A stretch of 64,000 nucleotides of DNA from an uncultured Candidatus Saccharibacteria bacterium. GTDB taxonomy: Bacteria; Patescibacteriota; Doudnabacteria; UBA920. Below the pieces are notes generated by a model. It was not told the DNA's origin. It saw only the letters and a list, made by a program, of their open reading frames with translations, and ran no database searches. The translations under genes were made by a program, and so were the position numbers. Shown here in pieces: positions 1,740 through 62,061 of this stretch. The DNA is taken from assembly GCA_964617815.1 (NCBI GenBank), contig CAZTXY010000003.1, positions 473-64,472 of the forward strand, given 5' to 3'. How positions within the stretch are numbered: the stretch's first letter is position 1; every line of letters begins with the position of its first letter.

Positions 1740-1811
1740 AAAATATTTCCATAAAATGGAAAACCGCTGACACCGCCGAGAAATTGAAAGAGTAGTAAGT
1801 AAAAATCAAAC

Positions 1812-1850
1812 ACCCTGCACTTTCGAAAGAAAATGTAGGGTGTTTTGGTT
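1812..1850 (+). terminator. Candidate intrinsic terminator after the phosphohexomutase gene
   Basis: Imperfect hairpin acaccctgca...tgtagggtgt followed by tttt. Confidence 0.35.
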
Positions 1851-1865
1851 CTTGGGCGTCTCGAC

Positions 1866-2330
1866 TTACGCTGTGACGTTCTTGTTGTCCTCCTTGGTCC
1901 TGCAGGTTGTGCACTCGACGACGAGTTCTCGTGAGTTTTGTTTCATGCCTTGATGGTGGAACTGAATCCCACACTTATGGCAGAATCGGGAGTCTAGCCG
2001 AGGCATGTTTCCTTTGTCGCTGCAGTCATCGCAGCGTGTTCGCGCGCACACCATTTTGGTGTTGCAGACATTGTGGGTCGAGAGGTGGTCGTAGTTGTAA
2101 GACTTTCCGCACTGAGTGCAGAAGCGGTTCCGCGCGAATAATTCGCGCAGTTTTTGCTGGTGCTCTCTGCGTCTATTCGCCTTGTTTTCTGCCACCTTGA
2201 TCTTGTAGGGGGTGTCCAAGAGATCTCCGCGATCTGTGGTGCTCTCTGCTTTGCGGATCGGTTTAAGAGTTGCTGTTTCCCTGTCAGTGTCAGGATGAAA
2301 GCGTCCCCACGTTGGGTTGTTTTTGCTCAT
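1866..2330 (-). CDS. Cys/His-rich zinc-finger protein, possibly an HNH-like nuclease domain
   Basis: A strong SD (aaggagg, 5 nt, ATG) precedes MSKNNPTWG, so the start is placed at 2330 rather than at the ORF-track start. The protein has CxxC...DH...H...N...CxxC...CxxC...HH spacing. The segment is GC-rich, unlike its neighbours. Confidence 0.4.
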   Translation of the reverse strand: MSKNNPTWGRFHPDTDRETATLKPIRKAESTTDRGDLLDTPYKIKVAENKANRRREHQQKLRELFARNRFCTQCGKSYNYDHLSTHNVCNTKMVCARTRCDDCSDKGNMPRLDSRFCHKCGIQFHHQGMKQNSRELVVECTTCRTKEDNKNVTA

Positions 2331-2407
2331 CTCGTCCTCCTTATGTGAAACTATCACACAAATTATATAAAATGTCAATATCCGCTACGTTGTAATAGTA
2401 AATTAAT

Positions 2408-2436
2408 AATCGACCTAAATAGGTCGATTTTTTTTC
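2408..2436. terminator. Hairpin followed by a T-run (aatcgacctaaataggtcgatt ttttttt), possibly bidirectional
   Basis: Perfect 8-bp stem with a 7-T tract. It lies between two minus-strand genes. Confidence 0.45.
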
Positions 2437-2497
2437 GGATAGTATGCAATAAATTGAATATAAAAAAAGTGAAAAAGGGGAGCCGGATGGCGCCCCT

Positions 2498-6859: not shown

Positions 6860-7075
6860 AAAAATAACATCCTATCTGGAATGCGGTTTAGATTTTTGTT
6901 ATGCGCGCATAACAAAATAAATATCGAAGACCGAATTCTTAAATTTATCTATAGCTTATACTTTGTTAGTCGTAAGGAAGTGGCTTCCGCAGCCGCCTTA
7001 CTTAGACAATTAACAAATGAAAACTAACTGTGATTAACTTTCATCTGGTAATTGTGTAGTGCTATCCTTCGTTGT

Positions 7076-7475: not shown

Positions 7476-8117
7476 TTAGGCCTGATGAGCCATTCGGTCC
7501 AAGAACTCGCGACCCTTGCCGACGTCGATGTTGATAGGCACGCCACTTGCGCAGAGCGGGCAGTCCGCCTCATCCCAAGCTTCGAGGATGACGTCGAGCA
7601 GTGACGAAAGCCTGGGCACGTCTCCTAACTGCTCTGCAGTCACACCACCTCGGTTGCAGATAGCTCCGAGCCCGATGACCTTGCCACCAATTGCCCTTGT
7701 GGCTTTCACAACCTTGTGTGCCGTTCCGCCGGTGGTCAGAACGTCTTCGACCACGAGGACGTTCTTGTCGGCGACGAGCTTGTCGTAGCCACGCTTGATC
7801 ACGAAGTTGCCTTCGTAATTTTCGGCGTAGACCGCCAGCACTTCTTTCCCTGTGATCTCGCTGAGATGCATGGCCGTCCATTGCGACAGAATGACTCCGC
7901 CGATAGCTGGCCCGATGACCACCTCGACGTGATTGTAGAGGAACTCAGTTGCGATCTTCCGGCAGATCTTCGAAACTTCAAAGATGTGCGGATACACGGC
8001 GTCCTTGTTGACATAGGCATTGCCGTGCTTTCCGCTGGTGTAGACGACGTGGGTGTTTGTGATGACAGCCGAAACCTTTCCGAGGATTTCCAACACGAAC
8101 TCTTCGTTGCTTTTCAT
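7476..8117 (-). CDS. pyrE: Orotate phosphoribosyltransferase-like type I PRTase
   Basis: PRPP-binding motif VLVVEDVLTTGGT. Length 213 aa equals OPRTase. Adjacent to pyrF. GC-rich. Confidence 0.6.
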   Translation of the reverse strand: MKSNEEFVLEILGKVSAVITNTHVVYTSGKHGNAYVNKDAVYPHIFEVSKICRKIATEFLYNHVEVVIGPAIGGVILSQWTAMHLSEITGKEVLAVYAENYEGNFVIKRGYDKLVADKNVLVVEDVLTTGGTAHKVVKATRAIGGKVIGLGAICNRGGVTAEQLGDVPRLSSLLDVILEAWDEADCPLCASGVPINIDVGKGREFLDRMAHQA

Positions 8118-8129
8118 CCGATGATCTCC

Positions 8130-9044
8130 TTATCTGCAGAGGTTGATCTGGTCGCGAAGCTTCATGGTTTCGCGACGTGCCGCTCTAGCGTAGTCATCTT
8201 CCTTGGAAGCGAAGATGATCTTACTGGAGCTGTTGATAATCATGCCGTAGCCGTGGCTGTCAGCTGTGGCCATAACCGTTGCTTCAACATCTCCGCCTTG
8301 GGTACCAATACCCGGCAAGAGAAAGGCCATGTCGCCGACGATCTCACGAACTTCCTTGGCTTGGAGCGGGTAGGTCGCACCAACGACGAGAAGGCAGTTG
8401 CCGTTGGTGTTCCAGTCCCGAGCGACGTTGAACGCGACCCGCTGGTAGAGAGGCATCGAATCCTCACAAAGAAGATTCAGCCAGGTTTTGGCTTTCATGC
8501 CTTTGGGCTTTTCTCGCGGATCGAGCGTCAGCGTGTGCAGATCCTGAAATTCACCTGCGCCTTTGTTGGTTGTCCGGCAAAGCACGATGATGCCCTTGTC
8601 CTTTTGGTCCAAGAACGGTTGCATCGCCTCTTTGCCGAGGTAGGGGTGAACGGTGATGGCGTCAGCTCGGAGCCAGCCAAAACTGGCAGTGACGTAGCAG
8701 TTATTGGTATTGCCGATGTCGGCGCGCTTGGCGTCGAGGATCACCGGCACATGCGGTGCGAAGCGGTTAATGTCGGCAATGGTTCGCCATAGTGCGCTCA
8801 TGCCTTCGTTGCCACTCTCTTCGTAAAACGCCGAATTGAGCTTGTAGGCACAGACGATGTCCTGCGTCGCTTCCACGATTTCGCGGTTGAACGCGACCAT
8901 CGTGTTGGCGATGCCGACTGTACATTCGTGTCCCGGCCTGTAGGCAGACTCCGGAATCTTTCCGAATTCGCTGTCCAGACCCACGCAGACGAAGTTACCA
9001 ACGCTCCACCGCTCTTCGAGCAGTCGCTGGAAATTTCTTCTCAT
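8130..9044 (-). CDS. pyrF: Orotidine-5'-phosphate decarboxylase, type 2
   Basis: Motifs VCVGLD and ILDAKRADIGNT (type-2 ODCase DxKRGDIxxT). The start is moved to MRRNFQ, which has SD aaggagg 7 nt upstream. Confidence 0.7.
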   Translation of the reverse strand: MRRNFQRLLEERWSVGNFVCVGLDSEFGKIPESAYRPGHECTVGIANTMVAFNREIVEATQDIVCAYKLNSAFYEESGNEGMSALWRTIADINRFAPHVPVILDAKRADIGNTNNCYVTASFGWLRADAITVHPYLGKEAMQPFLDQKDKGIIVLCRTTNKGAGEFQDLHTLTLDPREKPKGMKAKTWLNLLCEDSMPLYQRVAFNVARDWNTNGNCLLVVGATYPLQAKEVREIVGDMAFLLPGIGTQGGDVEATVMATADSHGYGMIINSSSKIIFASKEDDYARAARRETMKLRDQINLCR

Positions 9045-9083
9045 GGTTTTGCCTCCTTCTAGGCTGTCAAACAACTTTAAAAC

Positions 9084-9106
9084 CCGCTACTTAGCGGGAT
9101 TGAGTC
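9084..9106 (-). terminator. Intrinsic terminator (cccgcta agta gcggg then ttttaaagtt on the minus strand)
   Basis: It lies downstream of the minus-strand purM-like gene. Confidence 0.5.
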
Positions 9107-9216
9107 TGGTCGTAGTTTAGTAGAAATATAGAAAAAATGCAATAGTAAAATATTTGTAAAAAAAATTGGTGGGCCTGCTGTCTTGCGACAGCAGGCCCAA
9201 GCCTAGTGACACTTGG

Positions 9217-10386
9217 TCACCGGATGTTAAGTGACTCTCCCTTAAACTCGAGATACTTCGGGAGGATGACCACTCTCTTGTCAACGCTCCTTTTGATGTA
9301 TCCAGCCTTGATTGCATCAAAGTTGTAGTCCTGGGCGATCATCATGGCCTTGCTTACATCTGCCTTCGATATGTAGATAGCAAAGCCTGCGCCCATGTTC
9401 AGATTGCCGAAGGCTTCCTCATCGCTGATTGGGCCATGCTTTTGAAGGAACGCGAAGATTGGTTGTTCTTTCGGAAGCTCCTCGATGATGTACCGAAAGT
9501 TACGGTTCGCGCGCATCAGCTTGCGCCACCCGTGGCCGGTGATGTTCACTGCGTAGTGAATATCAACGCCCCACTTCTGGCATTCCTCCATGAACTTCTG
9601 GTAGATGCAGGTTGGAGTCAGAAGCGTTTCGCCGTAGGTACGACCGTCTGAAAGTTCGGTGAGGTAGCCCTTGGGCAAAGCATGCAGGGGGAAGGACTGC
9701 GGCAGGATGAGGTTACTGAATTTACGCCAAAAGCCATCCTTTCTGTCGCCGATTGATCTTGCCAAGGTCAGGCCGTTGGCGTGAATGCCAGAACTCCCTA
9801 GGAGAATTATGACATCACCATGCTGGATTTTATTTTCCGTGATCAGCCGACTCTTTGGTTCAATGATCCCGGTAGCTGAGCCAGAGATGACTGATTTTCC
9901 GGGGATGATAATGTCTTTGAGAGTCGGCGTTTCGCCGCCACCCCAGACACACCCACTGAGCATGCAGGCTTTTTTCCATCCATTGATGAGATCTATACTT
10001 CGCTGTTGGTTGCCGAACCAGCTTGATTCGCCGACGGCCAAGTGCATCATTACAGACACTGGCATTGCACCGAGCGTGATGATGTCGTTGATGATCATCG
10101 CCATAGTGCATTGCGCGACTTGGTCGTAGTACGACTTGCCGGTCAAAGCGCTCATCTGGTCTGCGACGATGTTCTTGGTACCGAGGCCCTCTTCGACGTG
10201 AGCTAGGATTACCTGCGGCATTTCGACGAGATAGGCGCTTTCGCCACGGCTCATCGAGATTTCATAAAAGCCGAAGCGCTCGATGTTCGGAGCTGTTTCC
10301 AAGCCAGCGGCCAATGCTTGCCGTTTGAACGGATCCATGGCGCCGTAGTCAACGCCCGTGCTAGCGTATGTCATGTTCTCTGTCAT
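9217..10386 (-). CDS. AIR synthase-related protein (PurM-like; probably phosphoribosylformylglycinamidine cyclo-ligase)
   Basis: The N-terminal GVDY...VILAHVEEGLGTK resembles the PurM VLxSGTDGVGTK ATP-binding loop. 389 aa. GC-rich. Confidence 0.55.
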   Translation of the reverse strand: MTENMTYASTGVDYGAMDPFKRQALAAGLETAPNIERFGFYEISMSRGESAYLVEMPQVILAHVEEGLGTKNIVADQMSALTGKSYYDQVAQCTMAMIINDIITLGAMPVSVMMHLAVGESSWFGNQQRSIDLINGWKKACMLSGCVWGGGETPTLKDIIIPGKSVISGSATGIIEPKSRLITENKIQHGDVIILLGSSGIHANGLTLARSIGDRKDGFWRKFSNLILPQSFPLHALPKGYLTELSDGRTYGETLLTPTCIYQKFMEECQKWGVDIHYAVNITGHGWRKLMRANRNFRYIIEELPKEQPIFAFLQKHGPISDEEAFGNLNMGAGFAIYISKADVSKAMMIAQDYNFDAIKAGYIKRSVDKRVVILPKYLEFKGESLNIR

Positions 10387-20001: not shown

Positions 20002-20013
20002 TTCTAATAATAA

Positions 20014-20078
20014 AAGCCCCGAAATTTCGGGGCTTTAAAAAAAAGGGGCACCCTTTTGCAAAAGGGTGTCCCTTTTAG
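20014..20078 (+). terminator. Tandem intrinsic terminators after uvrA
   Basis: Hairpins gccccgaaatttcggggc and ggggcaccc ttttgcaaaa gggtgtccc, the second followed by tttt. Confidence 0.65.
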
Positions 20079-20080
20079 TA

Positions 20081-20109
20081 TTGACAAAACAGCTAAATTG
20101 TTGTATTAT
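20081..20109 (+). promoter_or_regulatory. Sigma-70-like promoter (TTGACA, 17 nt, TATTAT) for the GC-rich island gene at 20180
   Basis: Consensus -35 and near-consensus -10 with 17-nt spacing. Confidence 0.5.
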
Positions 20110-20179: not shown

Positions 20180-20533
20180 ATGTCGAGCGATGACAAAGGC
20201 AAAACGCTTTGGGCCGACTGCGAAAAGAAGGGTCAAGACCTCACTCCGTGCTTCGAGAAGAACAAGGATCTGATCGAGGGGCTTGGTAGCAAGCAGGAAG
20301 TGCCTGCTGGCAAGCCCACTCAGCCACTGGTCCCCACCATCGAGCAGGCCGAACTCGAAAGCACAGAGAAGCCCGATTTCGGTCTGGTGATTATCCAGGG
20401 TTCTTACGGAACCGCTGGGGAGGGAATGGACTCTTTCTTCGAAGAACTGACGACGCCGTGGGTCAATGAGACTCAGCCGCTCAGGCCCATCATCGAGGGG
20501 GCTCTGGCGGCCGACGCAGACGACGACGAATAG
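20180..20533 (+). CDS. Acidic hypothetical protein, 117 aa
   Basis: SD ggagg, 7 nt, then ATG. High-GC codon usage. Terminator hairpin at 20542-20590. Confidence 0.5.
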   Translation: MSSDDKGKTLWADCEKKGQDLTPCFEKNKDLIEGLGSKQEVPAGKPTQPLVPTIEQAELESTEKPDFGLVIIQGSYGTAGEGMDSFFEELTTPWVNETQPLRPIIEGALAADADDDE

Positions 20534-20541
20534 AGATGTGA

Positions 20542-20590
20542 AGCGCGAGTGGAGAGCTGCAGAAATGCAGTCTCTCCACTCGCGCTCTTT
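20542..20590 (+). terminator. Intrinsic terminator (agcgcgagtggagag...ctctccactcgcgct then cttt)
   Basis: 15-bp inverted repeat. Confidence 0.55.
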
Positions 20591-20673
20591 AATTAGTTTA
20601 AAATTGACTTATCGGTCTTAGAAGATTATGGTTGAGTTGAGGGGTTGAATTTTTTGATGAAGGGGGAAGGACA

Positions 20674-21039
20674 ATGAGCACAATATTGCTTGTTGACGGT
20701 GACTACATTCAGCGGCCAGTTTTGGCACGCATGCTCAGTGATGAAGGACGCCAAGTCATCGAGGTGAAAAATGCCGAGGAGGCATTGCAGACACTCCAAG
20801 AGGTTTCTGTGGACTTGGTGATCACAGCCATCAGCCTGTCTCCTCGCATGAACGGCGATCCGTTTTCGGCCGAGCTTCGTGCGGCGGGGCACAAGATGCC
20901 TGTGATCTTGATGAAGAACTACCCCGGCGACGTTGTGGATGAGTCCGCCTATTCTGCGGTACTTCTCAAGCCGCTAGTCTTCGTTCGCATTCACATGGCC
21001 GTCGAGCGGGTGCTGTCTCAGTTCGCAGAAGCGGGCTGA
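20674..21039 (+). CDS. Degenerate stand-alone receiver (REC) domain protein (pseudo-receiver)
   Basis: A clear paralog of the canonical REC protein at 24624. It reads LLVDGD instead of DDD and DLVITA instead of DLVLSD, so the phospho-acceptor Asp is Ala. The conserved Lys (LLKP) is retained. Confidence 0.6.
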   Translation: MSTILLVDGDYIQRPVLARMLSDEGRQVIEVKNAEEALQTLQEVSVDLVITAISLSPRMNGDPFSAELRAAGHKMPVILMKNYPGDVVDESAYSAVLLKPLVFVRIHMAVERVLSQFAEAG

Positions 21040-21198
21040 TTCCTCGCCGCACTCATTCTTCTTGAGCCGTTCTTGTTTCACCTTCGGGTGGGATGAGGGC
21101 GGCTTCTTTGTTTACAAAAAAACAGCGCCGTGTCCCACCGGTGAAGGCGGGGCGTGCGCTGTGTTGCGAAGTGTCATGAAAGCTCAAGTCAGGGAAGC

Positions 21199-22347
21199 TT
21201 AGTCTTGGGCAGTACTCTCTGCCAGCTGTCCCTTGGGAATCTTACTCGCTGGAAGCTGGTAGGCATCGGGTGCGGGAATCAAGGTCGTGACTTCATTGAG
21301 CGCGCCTTGCGTCCAAGTGATTTCATCATCAAGTGCACTGAGAGCCGTCTCAATTTCACTTAACTCCCTGTCCCTTTTTCCGGCCAAGATAGTGAGCCAT
21401 CGTTCATCTCCAAACGTGGCGTAGCCCTGCACTCGCATGAGAAGTGTTTCTTTGCTTTCGCACTTGGCCTTCAGTGTGACCAAGTTGTTCACTCCTCCTT
21501 GCAGTGCTTCCAAGTGCCGGTTGAGGAGTCCGAGCTTTTCGCTCAGGTCTTGTTCCTGAGGGCTGAGGTGTCCTCTGAGTTCCTCACACTCAGAGATTTG
21601 AGCCTCTACACAGTTCAGTAGCGTCTCTCGCTCTGGTAGATCATCATCGTTGAGTTCTTCGATGGCTTGCCGGTCTGCGCGCAATTCGAGAAGATATTCA
21701 TCTAACTCGACGCGCGGTTCGACGACCGCAATCTTGAAGCGTCCTTCCAGATCCACCAGTCTTTTCAAGTAGTCCTTCATGGATTCTTCAAGGTGAAGTT
21801 GAACTTCGCTCAGAAGATAAAGCGGTTCGTTCCAGAAGCGAGAAATTCGTTGGTTGAGCATCTCATCTGCAACCTTGCGGTATCTTTCTACATCATCTTT
21901 CAAGCGCGACAACTCAAGAAGTGGAAAAATTGTGACAATGCTGAGCCAAGAGATGCTGGCAAGGCACGTCCATACCAGGCGAATGGAAAGTGGGTCTGGC
22001 TCAGTTCCGAGGAGAATAAAACTCAGAATTCCTCCAATTATGAAAGCGGGGATAAACATGGCAAAAGCTGGTAAATAGCCAAAGCTGTTTTCTTCCCACC
22101 AGCATTCTCGGAAACAGAATTGGAATCTTTTCCAGAGAGATTGGTTTTGCAGGTCAATCTTCTTTTGGAGAGAGTCCTGTTCTTTGGCGTTCCACTTGCC
22201 AAAGATTTGCGCAGGGATAACTCCCAGCGTTTGTGGGGTAGGTGACCGATCCTCTTTGCTTACGCAAGTGAGGTCGCGGTGAGAGGTGGCAACTTCTTGT
22301 GCCAAATCTCTGAGCTCATCATGCAACACTTCGCTTTCGCTGTTCAT
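21199..22347 (-). CDS. Membrane protein with two TM helices and a long C-terminal coiled-coil region, hypothetical
   Basis: The start is placed at MNSESE, which has SD ggagg 5 nt upstream. Hydrophobic segments LPAFAMFIPAFIIGGILSFILL and SISWLSIVTIFPLL. The C-terminus is heptad-rich. Confidence 0.5.
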   Translation of the reverse strand: MNSESEVLHDELRDLAQEVATSHRDLTCVSKEDRSPTPQTLGVIPAQIFGKWNAKEQDSLQKKIDLQNQSLWKRFQFCFRECWWEENSFGYLPAFAMFIPAFIIGGILSFILLGTEPDPLSIRLVWTCLASISWLSIVTIFPLLELSRLKDDVERYRKVADEMLNQRISRFWNEPLYLLSEVQLHLEESMKDYLKRLVDLEGRFKIAVVEPRVELDEYLLELRADRQAIEELNDDDLPERETLLNCVEAQISECEELRGHLSPQEQDLSEKLGLLNRHLEALQGGVNNLVTLKAKCESKETLLMRVQGYATFGDERWLTILAGKRDRELSEIETALSALDDEITWTQGALNEVTTLIPAPDAYQLPASKIPKGQLAESTAQD

Positions 22348-22517
22348 GTCTGCCTCCAGTTTTTGCCATTTCTGGCTGTGTCTTCCGACCACATAGTATC
22401 TTTTATTTATTGAGTTTTGTCAATACTTTTTGTGAAGAGCGAGGCTTTTCTTTTGTGCTCTTGCAATATATAATAGGTTCCTAGTTAAACTAGAAAAAAA
22501 TCCGCAGGAGGACACAC

Positions 22518-23414
22518 ATGGACACTAGTTGTACGATCGGATCGATTGAGTTTGAGCACCCCATCATGAACGCTGCGGGCTGGTGCAAGAATGCACAGCA
22601 CGCAGAAGAGCTCACGCTCTCAAACAGCTCAGCTGTAGTTTTCGGGTCTATCACCGTTTTGGAGCGCGGAGGGAACGAGGGGAACGTTTTTGTTCCGCCA
22701 CTCAATTCTCTCGGCCTACCAAATCACGGGATGGTTCGTTACCAGCAAGAGCTACCGGCAATCGTGGACAGAGTTCACGAAGCTGGTAAACCTTTCATTC
22801 TCAGCGTGGCTGGCTTTAATCTGTCTGACTTTCGCAAGCTCACTGATCTCGCATGGAGTGTTGGTGCCGATGGTGTTGAGTTGAATTTCGGTTGCCCAAA
22901 TGTTTGGGAAGATGGGAGCCAAAAAAGCCCTGCGTCTTTCCAGCCTGACTTTATCTACCAAACTTTGATGGTAGTGTTGGAGCCGAACTGCGGAGATATC
23001 TTTGTGAAGCTGTCTCCTTATTCGGATCCGTACCAACTCAAGGAGGTTGGGCAGGTCATCAACGAGATTGGTGGTGTGACAGCAGTCGTGACCAGCAACA
23101 CCTTTCCGAATGCTTTGGTTTTTGATGAGGATGGTCGGCCAACGATCTCTGAGGGCAAAGGCTTGGCTGGTTTCAGCGGTCCTGGGTTTATGCCCATTGC
23201 TTTGGGGCAGGTTTTCCAGTTCCGCGCCGCGCTCAACAGTGAGATTGCAGTGATTGGCGTTGGTGGCATCCGAAACGGCCGGGATGTTGCAGACTACATG
23301 AGAGCCGGCGCGTCTGCGGTTCAAGTTGGTACTCATCTCATGTGGCCTGATTCACCAGCTTGTCTTACCTCAATTCTTATCGAGTACACCGATTTCTTGC
23401 AGGGGAAGAAATGA
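22518..23414 (+). CDS. pyrD: Dihydroorotate dehydrogenase, class 1
   Basis: Motifs NAAG, GLPNHG, ELNFGCPN and GVGGIRNGRD. SD aggagg. Confidence 0.8.
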   Translation: MDTSCTIGSIEFEHPIMNAAGWCKNAQHAEELTLSNSSAVVFGSITVLERGGNEGNVFVPPLNSLGLPNHGMVRYQQELPAIVDRVHEAGKPFILSVAGFNLSDFRKLTDLAWSVGADGVELNFGCPNVWEDGSQKSPASFQPDFIYQTLMVVLEPNCGDIFVKLSPYSDPYQLKEVGQVINEIGGVTAVVTSNTFPNALVFDEDGRPTISEGKGLAGFSGPGFMPIALGQVFQFRAALNSEIAVIGVGGIRNGRDVADYMRAGASAVQVGTHLMWPDSPACLTSILIEYTDFLQGKK

Positions 23415-24448
23415 TCCAAGAAAACGTTCTTCAGATGACACTTCGGCGGCCTGATGATTTCCATCATCATTTCCGCGAGGGGGCTATGCTCAATTCTGTC
23501 ATTGAGCATGCGGGGTTGTTTGGTCGAGTTCTGGCGATGCCCAATTTGGCCAAGCCCGTTCTGACAGCTCATGATGCTTTCCGCTATCGCTACGAAATTC
23601 AGTTTGCGATTAGTCAGAAAGCTCGGAGACCGTTTAGGGTTTTGATGACGATTCAGATCACTGAGGCCACAACGCCGGAGATGATCTACGAAGCGCATCG
23701 TGCGGGTGTAGTTGCAGGCAAGGTTTACCCGCTTGGACAGACCACAAACTCTGATGCAGGAGTGACTTCTTACAACAAGCTTTACCTTGTTTTCTGGGCG
23801 ATGCAGGACTGTGGCATGCTACTGCTTCTCCACGGCGAGTTGCCGGATGCTGACATGTATTGCATGAAGCGGGAACGAAAGTTCTTGCCCGTGCTCCGCG
23901 ACATCGCACTTACATTTCCGCGACTTCGTATTGTCATGGAGCATCTTTCCACCCGAGCGGCGGTTCGTGCAGTGCTGAGTCTTCCGGCCAATGTGGCCGG
24001 CACGATTACAGTTCATCACTTACTGTATACGCTCAACGACGTGATGGGTGACAAGTTTCATCCTCATGCCTTCTGCAAGCCAGTGGCCAAGAAACCACGT
24101 GATCTCAAGGCCCTGCTCAAAGCGGCCACCAGTGGCAACCCGAAGTTTTTCTTTGGCTCAGATAGCGCACCACATCTTCGTGGCGCCAAAGAGACTGCGG
24201 ATTGTTGCGCGGGGATTTACTGTCCACCTGACGTTGCGCTTTCACTGCTCGCTGAGATTTTCGAGAGGCGAGGAGCTTCCGACAAACTCGAAGGTTTTAC
24301 TTCCGAGTATGGCGCGAACTACTACGGTCTTGAACCAAACGAGGGCACTATGACTCTCGTCAAGAAGTCGTGGAAGGTTCCAGAAGAGTACAATGGTGTT
24401 GTCCCGCTTTATGCGGGGAGAGAAATCTCATGGCAAGTTCAGTCGTAG
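23411..24448 (+). CDS. pyrC: Dihydroorotase, type II
   Basis: RRPDDFHHHFREG matches E. coli PyrC RRPDDWHLHLRDG. Also KVYPLGQTTNSDAGVTS, LLLHGE and FGSDSAPHLRGAKETADCCAGIY. The start ATG overlaps the pyrD stop (ATGA). Confidence 0.85.
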   Translation: MIQENVLQMTLRRPDDFHHHFREGAMLNSVIEHAGLFGRVLAMPNLAKPVLTAHDAFRYRYEIQFAISQKARRPFRVLMTIQITEATTPEMIYEAHRAGVVAGKVYPLGQTTNSDAGVTSYNKLYLVFWAMQDCGMLLLLHGELPDADMYCMKRERKFLPVLRDIALTFPRLRIVMEHLSTRAAVRAVLSLPANVAGTITVHHLLYTLNDVMGDKFHPHAFCKPVAKKPRDLKALLKAATSGNPKFFFGSDSAPHLRGAKETADCCAGIYCPPDVALSLLAEIFERRGASDKLEGFTSEYGANYYGLEPNEGTMTLVKKSWKVPEEYNGVVPLYAGREISWQVQS

Positions 24449-24452
24449 TCTA

Positions 24453-24491
24453 GGTCGGCCTCTCGAGAAGAGGCCGACCACAATTTTTATT
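24453..24491 (+). terminator. Intrinsic terminator after pyrC (ggtcggcctctcgagaagaggccgacc then acaatttttatt)
   Basis: 10-bp GC stem followed by a T-tract. Confidence 0.65.
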
Positions 24492-24537
24492 AAAGGTGTT
24501 ATTGCTCGTTTATGTAAAAGATGAGATGCCTCGTTCA

Positions 24538-24566
24538 TTGACTTTTGGTTGGATTAGGCATATGAT
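24538..24566 (+). promoter_or_regulatory. Sigma-70-like promoter (TTGACT, 17 nt, TATGAT) upstream of the REC gene
   Basis: Read directly from the sequence. An AT-rich patch inside the GC-rich island. Confidence 0.45.
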
Positions 24567-24623
24567 TGTATGTTAGTTCAGGTTTCATTTCGGAAATTTT
24601 CGGACAAGACGGAGGATGCCATC

Positions 24624-24974
24624 ATGGCAAAGAGAATCTTGATCGTTGACGATGATGCTTCGGTGCGACGGGCATTGGCTCGAATGTTGAGCGTGTTGGG
24701 TTACGAAACCCTACAAGCCGACGGAGGGGCAACGGCTCTGCGAATTCTTTCTGAAGCATCAGTTGATTTGGTGCTTTCGGATTACGTCATGCCGAAGATG
24801 AACGGCGTGGAGCTTGTCTGCGAGCTCCGTCTCGCAGGTCACAGAATGCCTATCGTTATGATCTCTGGGACCCCCGGAGACGTCAGTGACACAACTGATA
24901 TTGTTGCTCTTCTCGGTAAGCCTACCGAGATGGCCCAGCTTCAGGCAACGCTTGAAGCCGCACTTGGGTCGTAG
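24624..24974 (+). CDS. Stand-alone response-regulator receiver domain protein (CheY-like)
   Basis: Canonical ILIVDDD, DLVLSDYVMPKMNG, MISG and LLGKP. SD ggagg 8 nt before the ATG. Confidence 0.7.
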   Translation: MAKRILIVDDDASVRRALARMLSVLGYETLQADGGATALRILSEASVDLVLSDYVMPKMNGVELVCELRLAGHRMPIVMISGTPGDVSDTTDIVALLGKPTEMAQLQATLEAALGS

Positions 24975-25079
24975 AGTGAGTCAGCGCATTTTTCTTTTCT
25001 GAGCCGTTCCATATTTCGCTATCTAGCGGAATTGGGACGGCTCTTCATTTTGTATAAAACAAACAGCGGTCGCTTTGAT

Positions 25080-25496
25080 TTACATCGAGACGACCGCTTG
25101 CTTTTTTAGGTATGCTTGCCGAAAGTGCTCCAAGCCTTCGGGAAACTCACAGTGCTGTAGATACGCCAGAATGTAGTCGGGCGTAAAATCTTTTTTGCCA
25201 AAAAGTTTATGCGACCAGTAACGCGACACGACAATGACTGGTTCGCGTTTTTCTGTGGCCATCACAGCTTCGATGAAAGTTACAGACTGGATGATTTGGC
25301 CACACTCGTCTCGCAGTTCGACTCGAACTGCAGAAATGTCCTTTTGGACAAAGAGGACACAGACCTGAGTGGGACACTCTGGAAGACTCAGTTCGTAGAC
25401 AGCGCGAAAGCGAGTGTCATCGAAGACTGAGACATTCTTCCAAAGGCTAGGAGTGACTCCAGTAGTCAGAAGAAGCACGAGCAAAAAACTGGGCAT
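25080..25496 (-). CDS. Secreted hypothetical protein, 139 aa
   Basis: SD aaggagg, 5 nt, then ATG. N-terminus MPSFLLVLLLTTGVTPSLW is a signal peptide. Confidence 0.45.
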   Translation of the reverse strand: MPSFLLVLLLTTGVTPSLWKNVSVFDDTRFRAVYELSLPECPTQVCVLFVQKDISAVRVELRDECGQIIQSVTFIEAVMATEKREPVIVVSRYWSHKLFGKKDFTPDYILAYLQHCEFPEGLEHFRQAYLKKQAVVSM

Positions 25497-25681
25497 ACAG
25501 ACCTCCTTGGGCAGTAGCACGCTTTTATCATACAAGGTTTCGCTTAGTTTAACTAACTCTTGACATTGGCATGTAAAGTGCTCCAACTCGCATGCTATAA
25601 TAAAAGACTTTGGCAAAGGTCGTGCCAAATAAACTTATTTTTTTGAGATTAAATTTGAAAAAACTAATAAAAAGGACATAT

Positions 25682-27268
25682 ATGAAAACAACAAGCAAAC
25701 TTTTAGTGTCTGGTGGAGCGGCGCTAATTATGGTTTTAGGACTGTTTGGTTCACAAACAGCTCTTGCGGTAGCTCCTCTCCCTGCTCAGTGCCCGGGCAG
25801 TTTGGGCGACTATAATATTATTGAGGGAACATCTGCTAGCCAAACTTTGAATGGTACAGCTGGCAATGACTACATTGTTGGGAATGGTGGCGCTGATACT
25901 GTAAAAGGAAATGGTGGGAACGACTGTGTGGTAACTTTAGGCGGCGCCGATAAAATTACTACAGGCAGTGGTGACGATGTTATTTTAGCCGGTGGAGGTA
26001 CCAACACCATAAATGCAGGTAACGGAAATAACAAAGTTTACACTGGTGATGGCGCCGACACTATTACCACTGGTAGTGGTGACGATGTTGTTGAGGCCGG
26101 TGGTGGAGCTAATAAAGTTACCACTGGTGCTGGAGAAGACACTGTTACTACAGGAGATGGTGCAGACAACATTAAAACGCAGGGCGGTAACGACGTAATT
26201 ACCTCTGGAGCCGGTGGTGATATTATCGACGGTGGGACAGAATGTGATATTATCGACGGTGTTACTGATGACTTTGCATGTGATAACACAGTTCCAGAAG
26301 CGACAATTACTTTAGGTAGCCCAATGTATATTAGTGGCCCAAACATGTACATCACAAGTGCAACTCCTGTAACTGTAGACGTTGTTGATGACTTTGGTCT
26401 ATGGTTTTGTGAAATTTCCTATACCGGTCCAGGTGGGACAACCTTTGTGAAGGGGAGTGTTCCATGTCCTGATGATCAGTATGTATTTATGTTAGTTGGT
26501 CCTGACGGAACTTACACTATTGATGTTAACATTGCCGACTATGGCGACAATACAGACAATGCAACTAAAACAGTAATTCTAGACAACACTGCTCCTGTTA
26601 TTAGTATTGCAACACCTGCTGATGAATCTGCTCATGCACAAGGTGCTGTGGTAAATTCAGATTTTTCTTGCAGTGATGCCGCTAGTGGTGTGGCAACTTG
26701 TGTTGGTACTACCCCAGATGGTAGCCCAATTGACACAGCAACTCTTGGTGCAAAATTATTTACTGTGAATGCCTCAGATAACTTAGGTAACTCTTCTAGT
26801 TTAACCAACGACTACAGCGTGGCTTACGGCTGTAACGGGTTAGTGGCGACAATTCTTGGTGACGGTGGTATCAACTTTTTAGTGGGAACTTCCGGTGACG
26901 ATGTCATTGTCAGCCTCGGTGGTTTTGATACTATTATCGGTAATGGCGGGAATGACACCATTTGTAGTGGCGATGGACCTGACTTAGTTTTTGGCAGTAA
27001 TGGTAATGACTGGGTAGATGGTGGCGAGGGTGATGATACCATTTCAGGTGGTAACGACAATGACACTATTTATGGTGGAGGTGGAAACGATATTATTGGT
27101 GGGAACGATGGAACAGACAGTTTGTTTGGTGGTCCAAGCGGAGATGTTATTAGTGGTGGTAGTGGCAATGACACTATCGACGGTGGTGATGGCTTTGACT
27201 TCATTAACGGAAATAGTGGCACTGACACTTGCACAACTGGTGAGAATTTGACCAGTTGTGAGATTTAA
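25682..27268 (+). CDS. Secreted RTX-type beta-roll (hemolysin-type calcium-binding repeat) protein
   Basis: Sec signal peptide (MKTTSKLLVSGGAALIMVLGLFGSQTALA). Two blocks of 9-residue xGxGxDxUx repeats, for example TGSGDDVIL AGGGTNTIN AGNGNNKVY TGDGADTIT, about 20 units in total. Confidence 0.7.
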   Translation: MKTTSKLLVSGGAALIMVLGLFGSQTALAVAPLPAQCPGSLGDYNIIEGTSASQTLNGTAGNDYIVGNGGADTVKGNGGNDCVVTLGGADKITTGSGDDVILAGGGTNTINAGNGNNKVYTGDGADTITTGSGDDVVEAGGGANKVTTGAGEDTVTTGDGADNIKTQGGNDVITSGAGGDIIDGGTECDIIDGVTDDFACDNTVPEATITLGSPMYISGPNMYITSATPVTVDVVDDFGLWFCEISYTGPGGTTFVKGSVPCPDDQYVFMLVGPDGTYTIDVNIADYGDNTDNATKTVILDNTAPVISIATPADESAHAQGAVVNSDFSCSDAASGVATCVGTTPDGSPIDTATLGAKLFTVNASDNLGNSSSLTNDYSVAYGCNGLVATILGDGGINFLVGTSGDDVIVSLGGFDTIIGNGGNDTICSGDGPDLVFGSNGNDWVDGGEGDDTISGGNDNDTIYGGGGNDIIGGNDGTDSLFGGPSGDVISGGSGNDTIDGGDGFDFINGNSGTDTCTTGENLTSCEI

Positions 27269-27790: not shown

Positions 27791-28059
27791 AACTTAACCT
27801 TTCATTAGTACTAAGAATTATCAATTAGTATAATCTTATTGCTAAAAATTAGCAAGAGCAGTTTTTCAGTTAAATCGGTAGGGCTTTTCATAGGGTTTTC
27901 AAAGTGCTAGAATGTAAAGTCATTGCTTTGTGAAGCAATGATTATTGAGACAAGAGCCTTGTATATAAACTTCTTTTTGTATTTAGGACTCTTCGCTTCA
28001 ATAGAGCAAAGTTTTCGCCGAATAAAGTAGGTGATGTAAAATATTTTGATTGCAGGAGG

Positions 28060-28692
28060 ATGACGCCGATGACCAAGAAGTCATTGACCCCGTCTCAAGC
28101 AAGGCCAGCAGAGGCCAAGATCGATAAACTTTGCGACCGTGTTCGCGCGGCTGCACGGAAGTCGGGAATACCCGATGACCGTTTCCAGTTGGGACTGGAG
28201 GTGCCTGGTACTGGACTTGAGGATGACATCCTTAAAGTGCTTACCAGCTATATCAGGAAGGCCTCTAGTCTTGTTGTTCCGTCTCGGGCTCAGGACACAG
28301 GGCTTGTTCCGGAAGGATGGGCAGTCTGGTCGGATGAAGTTGAGAATGACGTCTGTTTAGCTCAGCTCGACTTTTGCTACTCACCTTGCGCTTGGAATGA
28401 AGAATACATCTACCATGATGCGATGCTTGAGCGCGTCAAAGCCGCAAAGACTTTGGGAAGCCTGGGGTTGGCCAAGATCATCCTTGATGAGCAGAAAGCC
28501 GGTAGACAGATAATACCGGTGAAGCTACAAGGAAAGAAGACCATTCTCTTTCCCAAAACCATTATTGTCCACGCTGGTGGCGACCATTGTTTGGCCTCTA
28601 TGCCATGGTACGAGGGGAAGTGGTATTTGGAGTTCATTTGGCTCGATAACTCTTTCAATTCCTCCATGGTGGTTCCTCGCGAGCACCAGTAG
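28060..28692 (+). CDS. Hypothetical protein, 210 aa (GC-rich island)
   Basis: SD aggagg. GC-rich. Its own terminator at 28714-28755. Confidence 0.5.
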   Translation: MTPMTKKSLTPSQARPAEAKIDKLCDRVRAAARKSGIPDDRFQLGLEVPGTGLEDDILKVLTSYIRKASSLVVPSRAQDTGLVPEGWAVWSDEVENDVCLAQLDFCYSPCAWNEEYIYHDAMLERVKAAKTLGSLGLAKIILDEQKAGRQIIPVKLQGKKTILFPKTIIVHAGGDHCLASMPWYEGKWYLEFIWLDNSFNSSMVVPREHQ

Positions 28693-28713
28693 ACCTTGGT
28701 AATTTGGTCTTTT

Positions 28714-28755
28714 GCCCGACAGAAATGCTTGCATTTCTGTCGGGTGTTCTGTTTT
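28714..28755 (+). terminator. Intrinsic terminator (cccgacagaaatgc ttgc atttctgtcggg then tgttctgttttt)
   Basis: 13-bp stem followed by a T-tract. Confidence 0.65.
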
Positions 28756-28894
28756 TAAAAAAGATATTAGCAGGCTTGACTTTTTTGAGTTCTTGGCGAT
28801 AACATCTTAAAGTAGTGCTATAATAAAAAACTTTCCGGAAAGTCTGGAGAAATTTGCAGTACACAGAAAAAGTTTAAAAAAGTCAAAATTTATT

Positions 28895-51813: not shown

Positions 51814-53397
51814 ATGAAAGTCAAACGAGCGCTGATCAGCGTTTCGGACAAGAGGTACATCGACAAACTCGGCTGGGCTCTTACCAAGCTCGGCGTGGAG
51901 ATTATTTCTACGGGTGGAACCGCCAAGGCGCTTTTGCAAGCGGGAGTGCCCATCATTGACGCCAGTGAGTTCACTGGCTGGCCCGAGATGTTCGAAGGTC
52001 GCCTCAAGACCTTGCACCCTCTCATCCACGGGGGAATTCTGTTCCGCCGGGGCAACGAAGAAGACCAGCGCCAGGCCGCCGAACATGGCGTCGTGGGGAT
52101 CGACCTCGTCGTGGTCAATCTTTATCCTTTTGCCGCGACCGTGGCAAAGGAGGGCGTGACCTTCGAAGACGCGGTCGAGAATATCGACATCGGCGGGCCG
52201 ACCATGGTGCGGGCGGCTGGCAAGAACTACGAGGATGTTGCTGTGGTCGTCGATTCCGGCGACTACGAAGCACTCATCGAGGAACTGGAGTTCAGTGGTG
52301 GCAACCTTTCGCTTATGACTCGCTTCAGTCTGATGAGCAAGGCCTTCGCCCATACGGCGGCCTACGACAGCGCGATCGCTGACTTCATTGCCAACCGGGC
52401 GACGTTTAACCCCGGAACCGAGAAGGTCGAGGTGCTTGATGCTGAAGCGATGCCGGCGCGGGTAACGCTGCAGTTGAGGCGCAAGGACACTCTTCGCTAC
52501 GGTGAGAACCCGCATCAGAAGTCTGCGCTGTACACTACGGCGCAGTCTGACGGTGGCGTTGCAGCGGCTGTTCAGATCCAGGGCAAGGGTCTTTCTATGA
52601 CCAACTATCTGGACATGGACGCGGCCTGGAAGATCGTAGGGGAGCTCGCAGGGGAGCTCGTCTCCTTTCAAGTCCCTTGTGCAATCGTCAAGCACGCAAC
52701 CCCGTGCGGCGTTGCCATCGGAGCAACCCAAGTTGATGCCTACATTCGGGCTTTTGCCTGCGATCCAAAGTCGGCTTTCGGCGGCGTCATCGCGTTCGAT
52801 GATGTGGTTGACGGTGATGCGGCCAGAGCAGTTCTGAGCCATTTCGTTGAGGTCGTGATCGCAACTGATTACACCGACGAGGCTCTGGAGGAGTTTCAGC
52901 GAAAGCCCAACGTTCGTGTGATGCGGGCGCCAAACGCGGTAGCTGAACCTTTCGAGCTTCGTAGTATCAGTGGCGGCCTGCTGTTTCAGCAGCCTGACAC
53001 TGACGCCATTCACGCTCTCTCTGTCGTCACGGAGCGTCAACCCACGGAATTCGAGGAGAACGATCTGTGGCTCGCCAACATGTTGGTCAAGTACGTCAAG
53101 AGCAACGGCATTGTCTACGTTCGCGACCAGCAGATGGTGGCGGTGTGTGGTGGACAGACGAGTCGAGTGGATGCGGTGCGCATGGCTGGCGAGAAGGCTG
53201 TGCTTCCGCTTGCTGGTTCTGTGTTGGCCTCAGACGCCTTTTTCCCGTTTCGCGACAATGTCGATGAGGCGGCAAAGGCAGGCGTTACGGCCATCATTCA
53301 GCCGGGAGGATCGAATCGCGATCAGGAGGTCATCGATACAGCCAACGAGAATGACATGGCCATGATCTTCACTGGCACACGCCACTTTCGGCACTGA
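51814..53397 (+). CDS. purH: Bifunctional AICAR transformylase / IMP cyclohydrolase
   Basis: N-terminal MGS-like IMPCH domain (KRALISVSDK...GVEIISTGGTAKAL...LKTLHP) plus the AICARFT domain. 527 aa. SD aaggag. Strongly GC-rich. Confidence 0.88.
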   Translation: MKVKRALISVSDKRYIDKLGWALTKLGVEIISTGGTAKALLQAGVPIIDASEFTGWPEMFEGRLKTLHPLIHGGILFRRGNEEDQRQAAEHGVVGIDLVVVNLYPFAATVAKEGVTFEDAVENIDIGGPTMVRAAGKNYEDVAVVVDSGDYEALIEELEFSGGNLSLMTRFSLMSKAFAHTAAYDSAIADFIANRATFNPGTEKVEVLDAEAMPARVTLQLRRKDTLRYGENPHQKSALYTTAQSDGGVAAAVQIQGKGLSMTNYLDMDAAWKIVGELAGELVSFQVPCAIVKHATPCGVAIGATQVDAYIRAFACDPKSAFGGVIAFDDVVDGDAARAVLSHFVEVVIATDYTDEALEEFQRKPNVRVMRAPNAVAEPFELRSISGGLLFQQPDTDAIHALSVVTERQPTEFEENDLWLANMLVKYVKSNGIVYVRDQQMVAVCGGQTSRVDAVRMAGEKAVLPLAGSVLASDAFFPFRDNVDEAAKAGVTAIIQPGGSNRDQEVIDTANENDMAMIFTGTRHFRH

Positions 53398-59509: not shown

Positions 59510-61003
59510 ATGAAAAAGTCCTGGGCCATTAGGTTCTGGTTGATTCTTCGCTCGATATGCAATATCTGGCGGGGTCAGGTGATGGTGGTCGTTGGCGCCT
59601 ACTGGGGCGACGAAGGTAAAGGAAAAGTGGTTGATGGAATCGGCCGCTTGTACGATATCATTGTCCGTTTCGGTGGTGGAGCCAATGCAGGCCACACGGT
59701 GTTTACTCCAGACGGGCGCAAGGTTGTGTGCCATCTGATTCCTTGCGGTGTTGCTTGGGGCAAGACCTGTGTGATTGGCCGAGGTGTGCTCTTCTCGTTG
59801 AGTTCATTTCTGAAAGAGTACCTTGAGATCGCAATGGTTCTTGGCGGTGTCATGCCTGTGATTTACATTGACACGGGCTGCACGTTGTTCACTCCGTATC
59901 ATCGGTTGTTCGAATTTTGGGGAGAGACTCTCCGGAATGGCAAAATTGGAACAACTGGTCGCGCGATCGGAGCATTGGCAGCTTTTGACAAACTTCGGTA
60001 TGGGCCAAAGGTTGGAGATCTGTTTTCTCCAGCTAGGCTTGAAGAGAGGGTTACAGAACTCTACTCCTTGCTTTTACCGATTTTTGAAGAAATGTTGGAC
60101 AGAAAGGAGAAGGGCGACGCAGACTTCAAGGATGTAGTCATCCCAACTCCACAGGAGGTGGTCGCACAACTTCTTTTGGAGGCGCAAAATCTTCCGAAGG
60201 ACTGCGTCATCGACACGCGAAGTTTTTTGCTCAAGCAGATTGCTTTGGGCAAAAAGATTCTTCTCGAAGGCGCACAGGCTGCAGGGCTCGACAGCAAGTG
60301 GGGAACTTGGCCTTTTGTTTCAGCTGGCGACTCTGTCGCCGCGGGAGCTTCTTTGGGTACTGGCCTGCCAATGTACTTGATCACTAGGATTATGATGGTT
60401 GGCAAGGCTTTGCCTTCGCGCGTTGGTCGTGGTCCCTTTCCTTCAGAGATGTGGGATAGAGACCTCATTGCTGATTTTGGTGAAGAACACATGTACCTGT
60501 TTTCGCCAGGGAAACGAAGAGACGGTTTCCTCGCTGATCTGCGAGAACAGATAAACATGGGCGGCAACAATGAGGTGCATGCCAAGTATTTTGGAGTGCT
60601 GGGCCTTGAGCTTGGCGCCAGTACCAGTCGTGTTCGGAGCCTTGGCTTCAGCGATTTGCCTTGGTTGCGTTACTCGGCTGAGGTAAATGGCGCCACCGAG
60701 ATGGCTCTGACCCGTCTGGACATGCTGTCTGGAATTGACTCAATTCAGGTCGCGGTCGCTTACAAATACGAGGGGGAGATTTTTCCTCCGGGGCAAATGC
60801 CAGTCTCGGCTTTCGACTTGGATCAGGTCGAGCCGGTTTACGAAGATTGGCCGTGCTGGAAGGAGGATATTTCTGGAGTGAGCAAGTGGCGTGACTTGCC
60901 GCGCGAAGCTAGGGTCTTCATCAAGCGGATGGAAGCTGCGGTCGGCGTGCCCATTACCGTGATTGGGACGGGGCGTGGTCGCGAAGCTCTCATTCGAAGG
61001 TAG
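59510..61003 (+). CDS. purA: Adenylosuccinate synthetase
   Basis: GAYWGDEGKGKVVD (P-loop), GGANAGHTV, GTTGRA, GAQAAGLD and PSRVGRGPFP. Strong SD aaaggagg before the ATG at 59510. An alternative start at MVVVGAYWGDE (59582) would remove an atypical 24-aa N-terminal extension. GC-rich. Confidence 0.8.
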   Translation: MKKSWAIRFWLILRSICNIWRGQVMVVVGAYWGDEGKGKVVDGIGRLYDIIVRFGGGANAGHTVFTPDGRKVVCHLIPCGVAWGKTCVIGRGVLFSLSSFLKEYLEIAMVLGGVMPVIYIDTGCTLFTPYHRLFEFWGETLRNGKIGTTGRAIGALAAFDKLRYGPKVGDLFSPARLEERVTELYSLLLPIFEEMLDRKEKGDADFKDVVIPTPQEVVAQLLLEAQNLPKDCVIDTRSFLLKQIALGKKILLEGAQAAGLDSKWGTWPFVSAGDSVAAGASLGTGLPMYLITRIMMVGKALPSRVGRGPFPSEMWDRDLIADFGEEHMYLFSPGKRRDGFLADLREQINMGGNNEVHAKYFGVLGLELGASTSRVRSLGFSDLPWLRYSAEVNGATEMALTRLDMLSGIDSIQVAVAYKYEGEIFPPGQMPVSAFDLDQVEPVYEDWPCWKEDISGVSKWRDLPREARVFIKRMEAAVGVPITVIGTGRGREALIRR

Positions 61004-61678: not shown

Positions 61679-61710
61679 TAGTACTTGGTACTGAGTACTT
61701 AGTACTTAGG
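61679..61710. repeat. AGTACT-heptad array (tAGTACTT GGTACTG AGTACTT AGTACTT agg), left flank of the four-helix-bundle gene
   Basis: Four units. Confidence 0.6.
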
Positions 61711-62061
61711 AACTGCATTCTTGTTAGCAAGGCTCCATAGCATTTTTTGAATAGAATTTAATCGTAAGAGTATCTGATTGATTGAAATATTTGGATACTC
61801 TTTTTGTATAATTAGTAGTTGAGTTTCAAGCTCATATGCTGACCCTAAGGAAATATTTAAAAATCTAATTAATTCAGGCTTGGTGTGTCTTCCAAATCCT
61901 TCTGATATATTCGAAGGTATGGATATTGCGGCTCTTAGTATCTGGGAAATTAAAATAAACTGCTCAGAGCTAGGTAATTGCTTAGCTATTTTATACATGT
62001 CAGAGGTTAATTGCATCGATTGTTGCCAAACAATCAAATCCTTGTGGTTGCTAATTGCCAT
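61699..62061 (-). CDS. Four-helix-bundle protein (TIGR02436 family, the type found in 23S rRNA intervening sequences)
   Basis: Signature blocks DLIVWQQSMQL, ISIPSNISEGFGR and GSAYELETQL. 120 aa. Confidence 0.75.
   Translation of the reverse strand: MAISNHKDLIVWQQSMQLTSDMYKIAKQLPSSEQFILISQILRAAISIPSNISEGFGRHTKPELIRFLNISLGSAYELETQLLIIQKEYPNISINQILLRLNSIQKMLWSLANKNAVPKY

Follow-up and report, generated by a model that had tools for sequence, protein, structure and literature searches.

The window analysed here, a stretch of 64,000 nucleotides from an uncultured Candidatus Saccharibacteria bacterium (positions 473 to 64,472 of the 64,649-bp contig CAZTXY010000003.1, part of a metagenome-assembled genome), carries downstream of uvrA a GC-rich island (20180-25496) with two paralogous genes for single-domain receivers. 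One product, REC-A (20674-21039, + strand, 121 amino acids), is an aspartate-less pseudo-receiver, and the other, REC-B (24624-24974, + strand, 116 amino acids), is a canonical receiver. Comparison with related populations indicates that the island is a stack of independent promoter-gene-terminator cassettes around an older REC-A/REC-B tandem, not one unit. This reading is carried by the observed residue states, their conservation, the paralogy and the indel structure. Taken as a whole (a cassette-built variable locus, a duplicated receiver tandem, and a REC-A that would act without phosphorylation), we regard the explanation as somewhat favoured; its structural and evolutionary part, drawn from sequence comparison, is very probably right, and its functional mechanism, every step of which we infer, is put forward tentatively.

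REC-A matched the Pfam Response_reg model with an E-value of 5.9e-12 (46.2 bits, above the PF00072 gathering cutoff of 30.2). In alignments to RR468 and CheY, the latter used only as a ruler for residue positions, the five catalytic positions read D-G-A-K-K, whereas a canonical receiver has D-D-D-T/S-K. Ala52 aligns with the phosphorylated aspartate (Asp53 of RR468, Asp57 of CheY), Gly9 occupies the second acidic position and Lys81 the Thr/Ser position, while the conserved lysine is retained. The loss of these three residues, including the change from Asp to Ala, had been read from the sequence alone in an earlier note on this DNA and is confirmed by the alignments. The beta3-alpha3 loop is also altered, and the D53A mutant of RR468 was among the best PDB matches. 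Indeed, the residue pattern of a pseudo-receiver, or aspartate-less receiver (ALR), was found in four strains alike. Foldseek searches of the PDB with the AlphaFold2 (AF2) model returned receiver domains throughout the top matches (probability 1.00, template modelling score ~0.6).

REC-B gave a stronger Response_reg match (1.6e-19, 70.5 bits against the same cutoff of 30.2), and its signature D-D-D-S-K bears out the earlier reading of the gene at 24624 as canonical. The acidic pair, the phosphorylatable aspartate, the Thr/Ser residue and the lysine are all present, together with proline at D+4 and glycine at D+8 (SDYVMPKMNG). Furthermore, REC-B weakly matches the RssB, CckA-REC, DivK-like and CpdR models, none of them at its equivalog cutoff.

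The two receivers are 40% identical to each other (E 7e-26), and a third protein, P0018, is 46-47% identical to REC-A and 46% to REC-B. P0018 is itself an intact pseudo-receiver with the signature D-P-E-A-K, glutamate standing at the phosphorylation site. In an exhaustive HMMER search with REC-A over 1.84 billion cluster representatives, only REC-A's own cluster scored below 1e-30 and the next match was P0018 (E 1e-20); among these representatives, the REC-A family therefore consists of one 50%-identity cluster plus P0018. One of four canonical signatures was carried by 135 of the 148 other matches. A metagenome scan for REC-A relatives returned the same lineage only, plus canonical receivers at 32-33% identity, and a scan of genome contigs with REC-A retrieved only an unrelated Actinomycetota regulator (40% identity). 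Moreover, homology extends beyond the coding regions: the non-coding 3' flanks of both genes, which hold their terminators, aligned with a local score of 32, reached by none of 2000 shuffles and the best non-self match in the window. Since P0018 bridges both proteins at 46% and the terminator flanks are homologous, REC-A and REC-B are paralogs, as the earlier note had proposed. Homologous terminators and the P0018 bridge fit an old tandem duplication of a gene together with its terminator.

The two genes have had different histories. REC-B occurs as two allele types, 65% identical and with a saturated synonymous divergence (dS), and the type tracks the presence or absence of pyrD-pyrC (window 24624-24974 vs L006 2176-2526 and L011 6848-7033). 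Between the strains whose REC-B alleles differ, REC-A, which lies ~3.4 kb upstream of REC-B in the window, is 78-99% identical. The recombination breakpoint between the two genes coincides with the insertion point of pyrD-pyrC and, given this discordant divergence between the same strains, recombination has shuffled the right half of the locus.

These observations bear on a model in which REC-A and REC-B form an obligate pair, with REC-A binding REC-B or its kinase as a decoy or in a heterodimer and tuning phosphotransfer, as proposed for CmrT/CmrR and WhiI/BldM. In its favour, the two are paralogs that stand directly adjacent in L006 and L011 and share the locus in every strain having REC-A, and this class of model is discussed in a 2025 review (PMC12632262). 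However, each gene forms a transcription unit of its own, and a strong terminator divides the two even in the adjacent arrangement; their histories are discordant in the same two strains, with a dS of 0.33 for REC-A and saturation for REC-B; and P0018 has no neighbouring receiver in the ~2.3-3 kb of contig downstream of it. By analogy with those systems, an obligate pair is conceivable here but rather unlikely. In this context, the earlier suggestion of a phosphate sink or decoy survives only in part: a sink must accept the phosphoryl group on an aspartate, so the term cannot describe REC-A, for which a decoy or adaptor role is the only one possible, and REC-B alone could in principle serve as a sink.

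We also considered that REC-A might be a functionless duplicate on its way to becoming a pseudogene, given that three of its five catalytic residues are lost, that the beta3-alpha3 loop is altered and that its ratio of non-synonymous to synonymous substitution (dN/dS) exceeds that of REC-B. Nevertheless, in four strains (the window, L011, L018 and L006) diverging up to a dS of 0.33, the start, stop, open reading frame (ORF), promoter-like site and terminator of REC-A are all intact, and no change is seen in the alanine at the phosphorylation site, in Lys81 or in the last 30 residues of the C-terminus. The dN/dS of REC-A is ~0.46 (0.40-0.50 against L006, at dS 0.33), and that of REC-B 0.09-0.19. 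Because the alanine is kept in the four strains, dN/dS is ~0.46 and the closest outside relative, P0018, is an intact pseudo-receiver as well, REC-A does not appear to be decaying and is, on this sequence evidence, kept by selection; we hold pseudogenization to be very unlikely.

The cassette structure emerged from comparison of the window with short metagenomic contigs of related populations, obtained by exact-protein look-ups and one metagenome scan and compared by BLAST and junction alignments. Across the window and these contigs, six arrangements of the stretch after uvrA were found. In L006/L007 and L011 (L011 at ~92% nucleotide identity in uvrA), the acidic-protein gene is followed by a 207-aa RTX-like gene and by REC-A and REC-B directly adjacent, the REC-B promoter lying within ~40 nt after the REC-A terminator. 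In L018 joined to L016 (a 253-bp overlap at 100%), the order is acidic protein, RTX, REC-A, pyrD, pyrC and REC-B, and the segment equivalent to window 21154-22434 is missing. The window itself has acidic protein, REC-A, membrane-protein gene, pyrD, pyrC and REC-B, and lacks the RTX cassette; L020/L021 are colinear with it over 20953-22489, a span covering the end of REC-A, the membrane-protein gene and the region upstream of pyrD. More distant contigs differ further: L019 (~75% nucleotide identity, a 7.7-kb contig) carries a 212-aa gene, a homologue of the membrane-protein gene (60% amino acid identity), a small Cys protein and a phosphatase-like gene, with no receivers on the contig, and L022/L023 (~76%) carry the pseudo-receiver P0018, a small Cys protein and a CMAS-type methyltransferase.

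Three cassettes can be delimited from these junctions. The membrane-protein cassette (1.28 kb, 21154-22434, - strand) is absent from L016/L018 and is bracketed by the imperfect short direct repeats GTGAAGGCGGGGC and GTGAAGAGCGAGGC (21140-21153 and 22432-22446); the pyrD-pyrC cassette (~2.1 kb, 22435-24515, + strand) is absent from L006/L011; and an 887-bp cassette with the 207-aa RTX-like gene, placed between window positions 20603 and 20624, is present in L006/L011/L018 and absent from the window. Every unit is equipped with promoter-like and terminator-like sites of its own, and the presence/absence indels are seen among relatives at 86-92% nucleotide identity. Since the relatives show independent indels of the RTX, membrane-protein and pyrD-pyrC cassettes, the island is not one imported composite, and therefore no functional link of pyrD-pyrC or of the membrane protein to the receivers is demonstrated. 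A single horizontally acquired island of 5.3 kb, whose receivers would regulate pyrD-pyrC and the membrane protein, would agree with the uniformly raised GC content at third codon positions (GC3) over all seven contiguous genes, but is most improbable, as in relatives the receivers occur where pyrD-pyrC is missing (L006, L011), pyrD-pyrC where the membrane gene is missing (L016/L018), and the membrane gene on a contig lacking receivers (L019), and neither REC-A nor REC-B has a DNA-binding output domain.

Several points weigh against the reading of a cassette-built locus with a duplicated receiver tandem and a selectively kept REC-A. Confidence in the AF2 model of REC-A is no more than moderate (pLDDT, the predicted local distance difference test, 69): beta1-alpha1-beta2-alpha2-beta3-alpha3-beta4 is clear, and the C-terminal half is poorly defined and modelled as helices. 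A neighbour-joining tree, as the earlier note had asked of the paralogs, grouped REC-A with P0018 at 73% bootstrap, but an exclusive clade of REC-A, P0018 and REC-B received only 10%. Downstream of P0018 (L022/L023), no second receiver lies in the ~2.3-3 kb of contig; the pairing of a pseudo-receiver with a second receiver is not obligatory, and the REC-A/REC-B pairing is therefore perhaps a historical accident. Although its dN/dS is below 1, REC-A is under relaxed constraint relative to REC-B. Genes missing at the locus may exist elsewhere in the genomes of the relatives, which are represented by short contigs, and each indel may be an insertion or a deletion. Finally, a functional link between REC-A and REC-B is conjectural.

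Within that explanation, the events may be pictured as follows. Downstream of uvrA, this uncultured low-GC bacterium has a strain-variable locus made up of distinct promoter-gene-terminator cassettes whose GC3 is atypically high. The module longest resident there would be a lineage-restricted family of single-domain receivers, whose ancestral gene would have been duplicated in tandem together with its terminator. The REC-B copy would have stayed a canonical, phosphorylatable orphan receiver, and the REC-A copy would have become a pseudo-receiver unable to take phosphate, yet selectively kept. In the window strain, two unrelated cassettes separate the paralogs: that of pyrD-pyrC and, nested next to it, the one with the gene of the helical protein with two transmembrane segments; the RTX cassette of its relatives is missing. 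REC-B might receive its phosphoryl group from an unlinked kinase or from a small-molecule donor, and REC-A might work by contacting other proteins, serving as adaptor or competitor towards the partners of REC-B or towards the co-located acidic protein. This two-Cys acidic protein, which co-occurs with the pseudo-receiver in five configurations, is as plausible a partner of REC-A as REC-B is. Under the same explanation pyrD-pyrC would be an accessory cassette for metabolism, functionally unconnected with the receivers, and the membrane protein would likewise be a bystander.

A linked kinase was sought in the window. No HisKA, HATPase_c or Hpt domain was detected in ~55 window ORFs (at least 120 aa and judged likely real), in accordance with the earlier statement that the window has no histidine kinase; an adjacent kinase, by which a two-component system would be recognized, is thus lacking within it. 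The earlier count of two receivers holds for the island, but a third receiver protein, an OmpR-family regulator, is encoded at 62149-62847 (- strand; Response_reg 3.3e-19, Trans_reg_C 4.5e-25). It is also aspartate-less: IIESE stands where the acidic pair would be and, in LIIASDLP, an alanine aligns with the phosphorylated aspartate of DrrD (1kgs). Its aspartate-less motif is identical in four relatives, its GC3 is 0.43 (core-like) and no kinase adjoins it; two of the three receivers of the window are accordingly phospho-dead. Next to the regulator lies the gene of a 23S rRNA intervening-sequence protein (PF05635, 1.6e-32; 61699-62061, - strand).

Regarding composition, the island has a GC content of 50.7%; the value is 43.6% over the whole window and 41.3% when the island is left out. 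Of the seven intergenic patches within or next to the island, five are at 35-43% GC, and the spacer between REC-A and the membrane-protein gene is at 55%. GC3 per gene is bimodal, with the seven island genes at 0.52-0.70, which make up the window's longest series of GC3-rich genes, and other genes at 0.26-0.46. Further GC3-rich genes are pyrE (0.71), pyrF (0.68), a purM-like gene (0.66), purH (0.68) and purA (0.56), plus three hypothetical genes; the blocks at 7476-10386, 51814-53397 and 59510-61003 encode the pyrE-like gene, pyrF (TIGR02127, above cutoff), the purM-like gene, purH and purA. The GC3-rich genes of the window are mostly nucleotide-biosynthesis genes. In every comparable case, a GC3-rich gene covered by a relative was absent there or its synteny was broken: hyp170 (window 1764-2463, GC-rich) is missing in L028/L029, hyp210 (27866-28770, GC-rich) is missing in L016/L017, and in L030 the synteny upstream of RNase J breaks at window position 6941, before the pyrE-pyrF-purM block, which is not at that position.

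Atypical composition combined with presence/absence polymorphism among close relatives, the mark of horizontal islands, is therefore found here, and gives good sequence-based evidence for a flexible, horizontally exchanged gene pool. The window contained no integrase or transposase, and PHROGs and PADLOC gave no phage or defence matches; att-like evidence was limited to the short imperfect direct repeats at one cassette edge, and no donor lineage was identified. The best match of pyrC (58% identity) lies on a contig of 61% GC near purK- and purN-like genes, while the closest named homologues, from Patescibacteria, are 53-55% identical; in a Parcubacteria genome a DHO_dh gene stands next to pyrC, its enzyme only 25% identical to window pyrD. 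Regarding the earlier proposal of a composite assembled from a foreign source and adapted to host promoters, the atypical composition and host-type promoters stand, but a foreign source is indicated by composition only, the import of one composite together is not supported, and no donor emerged. Outside the island, the score of window RNase J was better with Firmicutes RNase J1 than with a single Parcubacteria homologue, and an Rfam scan of the window found one tRNA only.

Reduced-genome Patescibacteria have been reported to lack nucleotide synthesis and to acquire genes of nucleotide metabolism through transfer (PMC12455944). A broader and decidedly speculative scenario, to which we give little weight, is that GC-rich cassettes are repeatedly drawn from a higher-GC pool, perhaps that of a host, in a reduced-genome and possibly episymbiotic bacterium, and are inserted singly, each as one transcription unit, at intergenic hotspots, for example the one following uvrA. 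Late pyrimidine and purine steps (pyrC, pyrD, pyrE, pyrF, purM-like, purH and purA) would then be a strain-variable trait, signalling would be mostly kinase-independent, with two of the three visible receivers aspartate-less, and the REC-A family would be a new stand-alone pseudo-receiver adaptor.

The first gene of the island (20180-20533, + strand) encodes the small acidic protein of 117 aa (25 D+E, 10 K+R; GC3 0.70) with two invariant cysteines, for which Pfam and NCBIfam gave no known family. Divergent homologues stand at the same uvrA-downstream locus in five relatives. The family (window 20180-20533; L019 4810-5085; L023 1104-1313) is fast-evolving, with the invariant core C-x(6-9)-L-x2-C-x3-N and the start MS(S/N)DD, and is always found in this variable locus and always strongly GC3-rich (0.62-0.72). 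A promoter-like site of this gene, TTGACA-17-TATTAT (20081-20109, + strand; 11 of 12 consensus matches), follows the uvrA terminators at 20013-20076 and stands on the left island border. The site exists as the earlier note described, though at the edge and not inside the island; the second promoter it named, TTGACT-17-TATGAT of REC-B (24538-24566, + strand), is present and conserved in L006 and L011, directly 3' of the REC-A terminator there. REC-A has the promoter-like site TTGACT-17-TATGGT (20604-20632, + strand), which comes after a perfect 15-bp hairpin at 20542-20586, and a terminator-like hairpin with a 19-pair stem (21064-21105, + strand) that relatives have conserved and that shares homology with the 3' flank of REC-B. 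Promoter-like sites numbered nine in 5.9 kb against 4.1 +/- 2.3 in shuffles.

A 14-nt sequence, AGTATTGACAAAAC, at 20077-20090 (+ strand) is repeated exactly and inverted at 22414-22427 (- strand), its two exact copies covering the -35 hexamers of the acidic-protein and membrane-protein gene promoters; allowing up to two mismatches, five matches were found in the window, where 0.83 would be expected. The sequence may be an operator common to both promoters, or it may just reflect a strong promoter consensus.

The membrane-protein gene (21199-22347, - strand, its start being the ATG behind GGAGG) has a promoter-like site at 22423-22395 (- strand) and a terminator-like hairpin at 21140-21123 (- strand), just outside the left cassette edge. 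Its product, 382 aa long, has hydrophobic segments at about residues 89-117 and 120-147, then a long helical C-terminal part, and the AF2 model, of low confidence (pLDDT 63), is all-helical, which agrees with the membrane protein with two transmembrane segments that had been described between the receivers on the opposite strand. Pfam, NCBIfam, PADLOC and PHROGs gave no match, Foldseek against the PDB nothing below E 0.9, and only two homologue clusters (90% and 60% identity) were found. A degenerate histidine kinase was considered for this protein, and no sign of one was found.

The pyrD gene (22518-23414, + strand; Pfam DHO_dh 5e-41) is class 1A-like, its best PDB matches being of class 1A with the motif lnfgCPNV aligned, although PRK02506 gave 153 bits, below the NCBIfam cutoff of 301. 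The pyrC gene (23411-24448, + strand) is of the homodimeric type (TIGR00856, 349.6 bits, above the trusted cutoff of 292.95) and overlaps pyrD by ATGA within AAATGATCC, the coupling reported before; a terminator-like hairpin follows at 24453-24479 (+ strand). Convergent with REC-B, a 138-aa hypothetical protein (25080-25496, - strand, GC3 0.52) had no family match, and its counterpart in L016 is 71 aa long. Beyond the island, a secreted-looking RTX protein of 552 aa (25610-27268, + strand) has nine RTX calcium-binding repeat matches (HemolysinCabind 4e-46) and a host-like GC3 of 0.31; shorter RTX paralogs of it (201-207 aa) occupy another slot of the same locus in relatives.

Taken together, neither the REC-A family nor the cassette mosaic overturns current understanding: pseudo-receivers are common and nucleotide-gene transfer into reduced genomes is already reported, so that the finding consists of known kinds of things. 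Nevertheless, the role of receivers that cannot be phosphorylated is a question largely open according to the 2025 J Bacteriol review (PMC12632262), and REC-A/REC-B offer a tidy natural case of what a bare receiver does once phosphorylation is lost. Moreover, what looks in one genome like a single "GC island" can consist of several independent cassettes stacked together, and nucleotide-biosynthesis genes in this organism are flexible and compositionally foreign.

About 4% of receiver domains are ALRs, and a bacterial genome has roughly two of them (Maule et al. 2015, PMC4395418); more broadly defined pseudo-receivers occur more often still, and the change seen most often in them is the loss of the second acidic residue (PMC12632262). 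REC-A resembles them in matching the Response_reg model while lacking the phosphorylated aspartate, the second acidic residue and the Thr/Ser residue with the lysine retained, but differs in being stand-alone, in having alanine at the site, where the common replacement is glutamate, and in its tiny one-lineage family. REC-B, a receiver-only protein of 116 aa with five catalytic residues complete, is like CheY, DivK and CpdR, but has no nearby kinase, CheA or Hpt in the window; unlike CheY it also lacks the aromatic switch residue at K-3, and its alpha4 segment reads ~4 residues shorter in the alignment. In CmrR/CmrT/CmrS of C. difficile and BldM/WhiI of Streptomyces, a canonical receiver and a pseudo-receiver paralog likewise occur together at a single locus, and models of heterodimer formation or of competition for partners have been put forward for pairs of this type (PMC12632262); however, those proteins have DNA-binding outputs and CmrRST a kinase, whereas REC-A and REC-B are bare, separately transcribed units with no kinase. 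The window pyrD can be aligned over its full length with L. lactis DHODA, a class 1A dihydroorotate dehydrogenase, and with the fumarate-dependent enzymes of trypanosomatids, the CPNV active-site Cys motif being kept, and pyrC passes the TIGR00856 equivalog cutoff of homodimeric (type II) dihydroorotases, but the pair differs from core pyr operons in being a strain-variable cassette. In brief, all parts are of known kinds, and what is new is a tiny lineage-specific stand-alone pseudo-receiver family, the canonical paralog that accompanies it, and a mosaic after uvrA that varies cassette by cassette.

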